This document shows, in pieces, positions 25,306 through 25,574 of a stretch of 44,456 bases of DNA. The notes under the pieces are model-generated. The model saw only the letters and a program-made list of their open reading frames with translations, was not told the DNA's origin and did not search any database. The position numbers and the translations under genes were made by a program. The stretch lies in the sequence record PV656001.1. One strand, 5' to 3'. Each line of letters begins with the position of its first letter. The stretch's first letter is position 1. Source of the DNA: Escherichia phage vB_Eco_ORH_001.

Positions 25306-25509
25306 AGTCCTTATCATTTAAACATAGAAACGGCGTAATCTCAGTAAACCAGTTACTTTTTACACAAGCAATAGAGTATGGCCCTTCCGAACGCGTCAGC
25401 GTAACTACACTCAGGACTTACGTCCCGCTCCGTTACCTGCCCGCGCCGCGGTCGCTTGTTCATACTTCACAAGCTCAGGTGGAGCTTAGCATATTTTCAG
25501 TGAAAAGTC

Positions 25510-25525
25510 AACTATTCGAATAGTT
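25510..25525. promoter_or_regulatory. perfect 16-bp palindrome AACTATTCGAATAGTT in a 270-bp noncoding stretch
   Basis: Read directly; contains CTATT and AATAG half-sites in everted order relative to the promoter operator motif. Confidence 0.4.
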
Positions 25526-25574
25526 TATTCCAACGTTTACAATTGAGTGGAATAACTGGAATAATCACAGGCAC

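Follow-up and report, generated by a model that had tools for sequence, protein, structure and literature searches.

A conserved structured RNA predicted between the Hoc-like and spanin genes of Guernseyvirinae phages

In phage lambda, the module consisting of the promoter PR', the 6S RNA of 194 nucleotides (nt) and the terminator tR' operates by Q-dependent antitermination. Other phage-encoded RNAs, such as DicF, which is encoded by a prophage, and lambda OOP, act in trans, and the intercistronic hairpins of phage T7 are sites of the RNase III type. Processive antitermination in cis by the put RNAs of phage HK022 needs the β' zinc-binding domain. The put RNAs, putL and putR, are two related copies present at two operons, are protein-independent and form two stem-loops just after the promoter (PMC9378689). 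Here, we describe an island at positions 25,306 to 25,574 of a 44,456-nt stretch of DNA, hereafter called the window, from Escherichia phage vB_Eco_ORH_001 (PV656001.1), a Kagunavirus of the subfamily Guernseyvirinae, and compare it with these systems.

RNA structure, strand, conservation, the design of the promoter and the absence of a conserved open reading frame (ORF) indicate that the minus strand of the island holds a conserved non-coding transcription unit, which encodes a structured RNA. Judged by sequence comparison, this RNA is a new core structured RNA family of the Guernseyvirinae, which was previously unannotated; no description of it was found in the literature, and the single RNA-seq paper on a Kagunavirus analysed annotated genes only. 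In the direction of transcription, the unit consists of the following parts:

25483-25511, minus strand: sigma-70 promoter with extended -10 element; -35 element TTGACT (25511-25506), 17-nt spacer, TG (25491-25490), -10 element TAAGCT (25488-25483).
25454-25474, minus strand: helix P1, GCUUGU and ACAAGC around a 9-nt loop; from folds and the covariance-model alignment.
25387-25451, minus strand: helix P2, a long three-part stem; from folds, covariance-model alignments and RNAalifold.
Within 25387-25451, minus strand: P2a, CCG.GGCGCG paired with CGCGUU.CGG.
Within 25387-25451, minus strand: P2b, CAGGUAAC paired with GUUAC.CUG.
Within 25387-25451, minus strand: P2c, CGGGAC-GUAA-GUCCUG.
25380-25389, minus strand: almost invariant CGGAAGGGCC; its CGG closes P2 and the remainder is predicted to be single-stranded.
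25303-25379, minus strand: 3' part of the RNA with the conserved blocks CUAUUG, AGAUUACGCCGU and GUUUCUAUG; it also contains tacacaagcaat.
25274-25302, minus strand: GC-rich hairpin GCCCCGC-UUUAU-GGCGGGGC (25302-25283) followed by the weak U-tract UUUACUUAU; from a pattern scan.

The RNA is predicted to be around 200 nt long if it ends at the hairpin 25302-25283, and its first ~100 nt make up a folded 5' domain. P2 is an irregular helix of about 29 base pairs (bp) with internal loops; the internal-loop nucleotides GAGUGUAG are unpaired and, like CGGAAGGGCC, strongly conserved, and the sole clear deviant from CGGAAGGGCC is UGGGAGGCCC in the early copy of phage Golestan (see below). Despite differing stem sequences, independent single-sequence folds of Kaguna-type and Jersey-type RNAs yield the same P1 and three-part P2. 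P1 reads UACGCU-UUC-AGCGUA in the Jersey type and UUCGU-UCU-ACGAA in Enterobacter phage phiEap-2, in both cases at the same place. Only P1, P2b and P2c of phiEap-2 align to the model described below, and its long-range P2a is a hand-derived proposal. For ACCGCGGYGCGG, there are two alternative pairings, either a local hairpin or the long-range P2a.

A covariance model, first trained on ten Kaguna-type sequences and then rebuilt with the hits that it returned, detects the RNA in all three lineages of the Guernseyvirinae, namely the Kaguna, Jersey and phiEap-2 types. In the covariance-model alignment of 31 distinct sequences, 95.9% of the cells are paired, compared to 29-42% when the partners are slid by 1-3 columns. 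Changes on both sides are found in 17 of the 29 pairs, P2b and P2c covary in all of their pairs (14/14), and the observed covariation score was matched by none of 500 shuffles. RNAalifold recovers P1, the base of P2a, P2b and P2c, and compensatory pairs are already present in a plain MAFFT alignment. One position of P2a, for example, occurs as C-G, U-A and A-U, and in the metagenome variant L195, a relative of phiEap-2, GUAAC/GUUAC is replaced by GUAGC/GCUAC and the entire apical hairpin is swapped. Salmonella phage SLMP1 (NC_073208.1, 874-924) carries a clean deletion of the distal two-thirds of P2, but keeps the basal stem and CGGAAGGGCC, and thus offers a natural mutant for study. Variation in the alignments supports no structure for the 3' half of the RNA. 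The conserved G-U pairs in the helices, together with the folding energies (-68.7 kcal/mol for the minus strand and -48.5 kcal/mol for the plus strand), place the RNA on the minus strand. A small RNA (sRNA) had been among the options of the original prediction, which was made from the letters of the window, and this option is strongly supported by the extensive covariation; the GC palindrome ccgcgccgcgg, which it had correctly located at 25441-25451, constitutes the 5' strand of P2a.

The -35, TG and -10 elements of the promoter are conserved in the three lineages and in the early copies, while the spacer bases and the n of TGn vary. The promoter reads TAGACT..TGtTACGCT in the Jersey type, TGGACT..TGaTAACCT in phiEap-2 and TTGACT..TGcTAAGCT in the copies of the early region. 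It is unique in the window and was missed by a simple promoter scan, because its -10 hexamer has only 3/6 consensus positions. Transcription is predicted to start at G25476 or A25475, which would place P1 about 3 nt from the 5' end. No other promoter-like site was found on the minus strand between the terminator of the Hoc-like gene and the capsid gene. The proposal that the island holds a late promoter has gained sequence support, in the form of a conserved extended -10 sigma-70 promoter directed at the spanin, scaffold and capsid genes.

The 297-nt unit was found in 216 phage records by BLAST. In a comparison of the sequences between the Hoc-like and spanin genes of 50 related loci, the ~305 bp left once inserts are set aside show 93-99% identity in almost every Kagunavirus locus, with one outlier at 84%, and are recognisably conserved in Jersey-type phages and phiEap-2. 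Phage vB_Eco_K1B4, for which strand-aware RNA-seq reads are public (PRJNA939978 / PRJCA028359), is 97% identical to the window here. The unit occupies the same position in all loci examined and is core to the Guernseyvirinae. Scans of public viral, metagenome and genome collections with a gapped 22-base pattern, which replaced a 15-mer scan that gave mostly chance hits, return mainly Guernseyvirinae-type contigs, as checked with the covariance model. A Jersey-type copy of the RNA with its upstream repeats lies on the 738-bp contig L208 (NZ_JACVEL010000048.1) assigned to Taishania pollutisoli, a member of the Bacteroidota, which is most likely a phage contamination of a bacterial assembly.

A second copy, which comprises the promoter and the RNA and shows further covariation, was confirmed in 8 related loci. 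In the early control region, this copy occupies the space that separates the HTH_17 gene from the first early rightward gene, and the early promoter/operator lies downstream of it. BLAST place counts suggest that about 43 records, such as fFiEco02, 536P11, Golestan and fKuEco01, carry it. The early copies keep the RNA and the core promoter and lack the upstream repeats; these repeats therefore look like regulation specific to the late copy. In the viral contig L021, the RNA of the late region has the P2b and P2c that are typical of the early copies in L212 and L213, which suggests exchange or gene conversion between RNA copies. The window contains another candidate non-coding unit at the site of the second copy (37425-37700, minus strand, early control region). 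It consists of a promoter-like TTGAAA-18-TATAAT (37684-37655), around 220 nt that fold at z = -4.3 relative to shuffles, and a hairpin GGGCAGGC-TTAA-GGCCTGCCC (37455-37435) directly upstream of the early promoter/operator, and its 3' third is common to 334 phage records.

In the nearest outgroups, the head-morphogenesis and scaffold genes are direct neighbours; in the closest of them, Salmonella phage PMBT28 (L218, 3030-3106), they lie 77 nt apart. The covariance model had no match in the capsid-gene neighbourhoods scanned in PMBT28 and ehaak_LB5, and none outside the Guernseyvirinae. The block consisting of the Hoc-like gene, an accessory-gene slot, the RNA and the spanins hence looks, from this comparison, like an insertion into the head module that is specific to the Guernseyvirinae.

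The hairpin 25302-25283, with its weak tail TTTACTTAT, is located around 20 nt ahead of the spanin ribosome-binding site and around 95 nt past the 5' domain. Its stem covaries (GCCCAGC/GCUGGGC, GCCCUGC/GCAGGGC and, in the Jersey type, GCCCGGC/GCCGGGC), and the U-tract is poorer in the Jersey type (UUAGCGUAU) and missing in phiEap-2. Because of the weak U-tract, the hairpin probably leaks, and it is probably a leaky terminator or an attenuator. Stronger minus-strand terminators are predicted further downstream at 22911-22890, after the capsid gene, and at 18323-18298 and 17621-17602. The 3' part also contains tacacaagcaat at 25361-25372, which had been taken for a copy of an early-leader motif; its position is correct, but the relationship is not significant, as the window holds no further copy with up to one mismatch and, at two mismatches, 6 matches compared to 3.7 expected. 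Two of the six correspond to TACACCAACAAT at 2361 and 15783, which adjoin early-type operator motifs and are probably what the prediction had in mind. Within the unit, no family of Rfam 15 was matched; only terminator look-alikes and wcaG (15.7 bits, gathering score 42, E = 8.2) were returned. A GGAA loop resembling that of the signal recognition particle RNA likewise has no Rfam support, a CsrA sponge was rejected since just one GGA motif is conserved across the lineages, and tiny leader peptides (UUG/AUG mini-ORFs) are not conserved across them.

The resemblance of this locus is closer to HK022 put than to the logic of lambda PR'-6S-tR', and it is functional only, because no sequence or structure homology to put is seen. 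As with put, two stem-loops are found directly after a sigma-70 promoter, whose start is predicted here, and this promoter opens a long operon with terminators inside it; no antiterminator protein was detected among the 10 early proteins scanned. The second copy at the early operon of some Kagunavirus relatives recalls the two put copies. The element differs from put in its length (about 90 nt compared to about 70 nt), in being followed by about 95 nt of conserved sequence and its own terminator-like hairpin, and in its hosts, which are virulent siphophages, whereas put belongs to lambdoid phages. With the lambda module, it shares a sigma-70 promoter with the -35 element TTGACT, a leader of around 200 nt that, as predicted from the sequence, ends at a terminator before lysis or late genes, and downstream late genes that need read-through. 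However, no Q homologue was found among the 10 early proteins, a covarying structure of similar conservation is missing from the lambda leader, the terminator described here is weak, and the downstream genes are spanin and head genes only. The order of promoter, conserved structured RNA, terminator hairpin and coding genes is also that of attenuators and riboswitch leaders; in contrast to these, no Rfam aptamer class was matched and no mutually exclusive antiterminator pairing was identified.

The genes around the island all lie on the minus strand. Their annotation was taken from GenBank PV656002.1 (Escherichia phage vB_Eco_Hrm2), which is the reverse complement relative to the window, and the setting is as follows:

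27176-28657, minus strand: portal gene (annotation).
26063-27139, minus strand: head-morphogenesis gene (annotation).
25602-26063, minus strand: gene of a Hoc-like Ig protein (annotation).
25576-25602, both strands: bidirectional intrinsic terminator AAAAAGCCCC-TTAA-CGGGGCTTTTT, a T-tailed hairpin on either strand.
25259-25601, minus strand: gap between the Hoc-like and spanin genes.
24872-25258, minus strand: i-spanin (Rz-like), the first gene downstream of the RNA unit.
24763-25026, minus strand: o-spanin, embedded in the i-spanin gene.
23979-24734, minus strand: scaffold gene, after the spanins.
22927-23976, minus strand: major capsid protein gene, after the scaffold gene.

The terminator 25576-25602 ends the gene of the Hoc-like protein and, in relatives, also a convergent cargo gene. 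Its stem shows compensatory changes (AAGCCCC/GGGGCTT in place of AAGGCCCC/GGGGCCTT or the reverse) among relatives; it was not listed by the pattern scan and weakly matches terminator-type sRNA models of Rfam. The original prediction had placed the island between two terminators, which holds on both strands for 25576-25602, but only on the minus strand, and with a weak tail, for 25283-25302.

We favour the reading that the RNA is a cis-acting regulatory leader of the late operon encoding the spanins, scaffold and capsid, either as a put-like antiterminator or as an attenuator, with a rough probability of 45%. The strong bidirectional terminator after the Hoc-like gene would stop transcription from upstream, and the extended -10 promoter (25511-25483) would restart it. 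The first ~100 nt of the transcript would fold into P1 and P2, followed by CGGAAGGGCC, and this domain would decide on the passage of the polymerase through the leaky hairpin and the stronger terminators (22911-22890, 18323-18298). This might be achieved by a modified elongating polymerase, as with the HK022 put RNA, or by a factor-dependent attenuation switch; P1 at the 5' terminus would in addition serve to protect the mRNA. Upstream (-34 to -88), the palindrome and the GGAATAA/YTATTC repeats are putative sites of a regulator that would time the late copy of the promoter. A role in cis is favoured because the terminator of the Hoc-like gene is strong and no other promoter-like site precedes the capsid gene, because the downstream hairpin leaks while strong terminators are present within the downstream operon, because the second copy likewise heads a long operon (early rightward), and because the unit is core to the subfamily and fixed in position. 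A further reason is the absence of a Q-type protein among those scanned: a Pfam scan of the 10 early proteins found HTH_17, a weak NinH-like match and DUF3850/ASCH, and no Q-type antiterminator domain.

Several observations weigh against this reading. The start site, the 3' end and the terminator efficiency are sequence predictions; the single-sequence folding z-score is weak (-1.5), and fitting the covariance-model alignments to the structure somewhat inflates the pair counts reported above. For the arms of the terminator hairpin, no alternative antiterminator pairing was found. The same layout of promoter, 5' domain, linker of ~100 nt and GC hairpin is present in two contexts, and hence looks like a self-contained RNA gene, which agrees just as well with an RNA acting in trans. 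The early copy is optional, since none was found in the phage of the window or in K1G. The full structure is dispensable for a deposited phage, as SLMP1 lacks the distal part of P2, and the head genes of PMBT28 are contiguous without the element, so that the expression of head genes does not intrinsically depend on it. Finally, a search of the whole HK022 genome with the rebuilt covariance model and filters switched off gave a best score of 9.3 bits (E = 3.5), and there was no model hit in the HK022 immunity region, where the put sites are expected.

It is tempting to speculate further that the RNAs form a new family of protein-independent, put-like processive antiterminators, unrelated in sequence to HK022 put; on present evidence, this more specific idea is doubtful. 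A put-like RNA would act on the RNA polymerase of Escherichia coli or Salmonella and would license read-through of the terminators of the late operon and, in many relatives, also of the early operon, in a virulent subfamily without N- or Q-type proteins.

The main rival of a cis-acting leader, which we regard as possible though rather unlikely, is a stand-alone sRNA of ~200 nt with its own promoter that ends at the hairpin 25302-25283 and acts in trans. Such an RNA would hit host or phage mRNAs via CGGAAGGGCC, or bind or titrate a protein, and read-through into the spanin genes would be incidental. The unit has its own promoter and is flanked by terminator-like hairpins, relatives have the identical arrangement of promoter, domain, linker and hairpin at another genomic site, and no pairing is predicted for the stretch with the highest conservation. 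Like the phage sRNAs DicF and lambda OOP, the predicted RNA is a short non-coding transcript between protein genes with its own promoter and a 3' hairpin. However, it is far more structured than these, and instead of the long U-tail of Hfq-type sRNAs it has UUUACUUAU in the window, UUAGCGUAU in the Jersey type and none in phiEap-2, where the tail of the 3' hairpin is absent, leaving no defined Hfq-type 3' end. Moreover, the phage holds no site complementary to the conserved stretch, and neither similarity nor an extended antisense match to the RNA was found in 5,426 E. coli genomes, a search that covers long matches only; thus, no antisense target was found in phage or E. coli genomes. The fixed place before the spanin ribosome-binding site in every lineage also suggests coupling to the genes downstream.

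The two remaining functional explanations are less likely. The first is an element for mRNA processing or stability, in which P2 would serve as an RNase III-type site and P1 as a protective 5' hairpin, so that only the half-life would be affected. The ~29-bp irregular P2 with its internal loops, the start of P1 some 3 nt behind the predicted 5' end and the location at the 5' end of the most needed mRNAs, those of scaffold and capsid, are consistent with it. On the other hand, a generic stabiliser needs neither a conserved unpaired CGGAAGGGCC nor GAGUGUAG, the deletion of the distal P2 in SLMP1 would destroy the RNase III site, and the element has a terminator-like hairpin downstream of it in either genomic context, which together make this explanation quite improbable.

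The second confines the function to the DNA, with a regulator-binding region and a late promoter, and the ~200 nt transcribed from it as a mere spacer. The elements upstream of the promoter are:

25564-25575, plus strand: empty accessory-gene (moron) slot, at a homology break in relatives.
25549-25564, plus strand: direct repeat GGAATAA-CT-GGAATAA, at about -73 to -88 of the minus-strand promoter.
25525-25531, minus strand: third, inverted GGAATAA copy (TTATTCC on the plus strand), conserved in the three lineages.
25510-25525, no strand: palindrome AACTATTCGAATAGTT, at about -49 to -34 with its centre near -41.5 and a 2-bp overlap with the -35 element.

Repeats and promoter are conserved, and the centre of the palindrome near -41.5, as derived from the coordinates, corresponds to the position of a class II activator. 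However, binding to DNA cannot explain compensatory changes in 17/29 pairs and strand-specific G-U pairs, the early copies retain the RNA and the core promoter without the upstream repeats, and the palindrome by itself lies within chance, all of which makes a function at the level of DNA alone more improbable still.

Read on the minus strand, the upstream region has the order TTATTCC-AG-TTATTCC, 18 nt, GGAATAA-A-CTATTC-GAATAG, and then TTGACT. The direct repeat at 25549-25564 (ggaataactggaataa) had been reported correctly, as had the positions of all four sequence features that were singled out. Its minus-strand reading, the 16-mer TTATTCCAGTTATTCC, is near-invariant in the Kagunavirus, Jerseyvirus and phiEap-2 lineages, although the window shows no enrichment of the 7-mer GGAATAA, and the repeat is presumed to be a protein-binding site. 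The dyad GGAATAA-A-CTATTC is conserved in all three lineages, and its general form GGAATA(A/C)-N-YTATTC is near-invariant. The HTH_17 protein (record positions 40889-41071) and the NinH-like protein (record positions 3419-3655) are candidate binders of these repeats. The palindrome AACTATTCGAATAGTT is indeed a perfect 16-bp palindrome, as stated in the original prediction; it is specific to the Kaguna type, where it is at least 95% conserved in 39 sequences, and has no near copy elsewhere in the window. Taken alone it is not significant, because at least one perfect 16-bp palindrome was found in 46% of shuffled windows; the window has two. The other one, TAATAGCTAGCTATTA at 2335-2350, has the same half-sites as the early operator. 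This early promoter/operator, TATAATAGGnTACTATTCA, with the inverted repeat AATAG-N4-CTATT, occurs six times in the window (15762, 35559, 37331, 40930, 40974 and 43287), with none expected by chance, and one of the copies heads an opposite-strand island within the tail genes. TATAATAGGnTACTATTCA and AACTATTCGAATAGTT share CTATT/AATAG, and a protein-binding site using everted operator half-sites had been among the options of the original prediction. This idea is rejected by comparison with relatives: Jersey-type phages retain the early operator with AATAG..CTATT, yet their dyad at the position of the palindrome is TACTTTATTCAAAAAGTA, and that of phiEap-2 is GGAATAAATTATTCC. The direct repeat can also be read as TGGAATAAT, a conserved element resembling an extended -10 on the plus strand. 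A plus-strand promoter TTTACA-18-AATAAT (25536-25565) was rejected: its -10 is destroyed (AATACG, AATAGG and others) in all cargo-bearing Kaguna-type relatives, phiEap-2 lacks TTTACA, and transcription from this promoter would run into the terminator ~10 nt away.

Least probable by far, and judged not to be a gene, is a small protein encoded by the hypothetical ORF of 36 amino acids at 25353-25463 on the minus strand (XVB94981.1, GenBank annotation), which is contained in the structured RNA: PV656002.1 and phage Shashou both carry the annotation, the latter with a ribosome-binding site call, and the ORF is intact in 29 of the 50 loci, but it is truncated or frame-shifted to 9, 9, 17, 34, 40 or 48 amino acids in at least six Kaguna-type loci, its ATG is changed to GTG in one Kagunavirus, it is absent with its whole start region from the Jersey and phiEap-2 types, the intact copies have mostly non-synonymous substitutions spread 4:3:3 over the codon positions without third-position bias, no PHROG family matches it, and its bases are constrained as RNA helices. 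The statement in the original prediction that the island lacks a plausible ORF is thus true in substance, even though this annotated ORF exists.

The Hoc-like and spanin genes of Jersey-type phages are separated by 317-318 bp; in "empty" Kagunaviruses, to which the phage of the window belongs, the distance is 339-343 bp, and in the others it amounts to 507-1117 bp. The extra DNA always lies between window position 25563/25564 and the bidirectional terminator. These inserts of 160-780 bp each consist of their own early-type promoter and one cargo gene on the plus strand of the window, and comprise at least ten unrelated genes, among them those of a DNA methyltransferase, an endonuclease VII/HNH-like protein, a clamp-like protein (phrog_3007), a lipoprotein (phrog_13472) and small proteins without assigned function. 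As varied inserts are found at one fixed point, 25564-25575 is a hypervariable accessory-gene slot, empty in the phage of the window. The slot, like the strand and structure of the RNA and its second copy in relatives, had not been seen in the initial reading of the sequence.

Holin and endolysin are encoded elsewhere and not beside the spanin and head genes, and the window contains neither transfer RNA nor transfer-messenger RNA genes. The scaffold and capsid genes proper (23979-24734 and 22927-23976, minus strand) are unannotated in PV656002.1, which instead has a hypothetical ORF of 551 amino acids (CDS0027) on the wrong strand across both of them (window 22885-24540, plus strand). A match to the Cobalamin riboswitch within the head-morphogenesis gene (26246-26458, minus strand; 18.8 bits, E = 0.044) was judged to be due to chance, with a score under the gathering score of 31.5.

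Guernseyvirinae, which include K1-specific coliphages and Jersey-like Salmonella phages, are widely isolated and are used in therapy and biocontrol. The element described here sits at the exact point where the spanin, scaffold and capsid genes need transcription to begin anew, and is often mis-annotated as a protein of 36 amino acids, while the adjacent slot is a natural insertion site that could help engineering. A cis-acting RNA would make the element a second, independent case in which phages govern the processivity of the polymerase through RNA alone, whereas action in trans would mean a conserved phage sRNA with host targets to be found. In either case, the element gives experiments a handle on how the Guernseyvirinae time and boost their late genes with the host polymerase alone.

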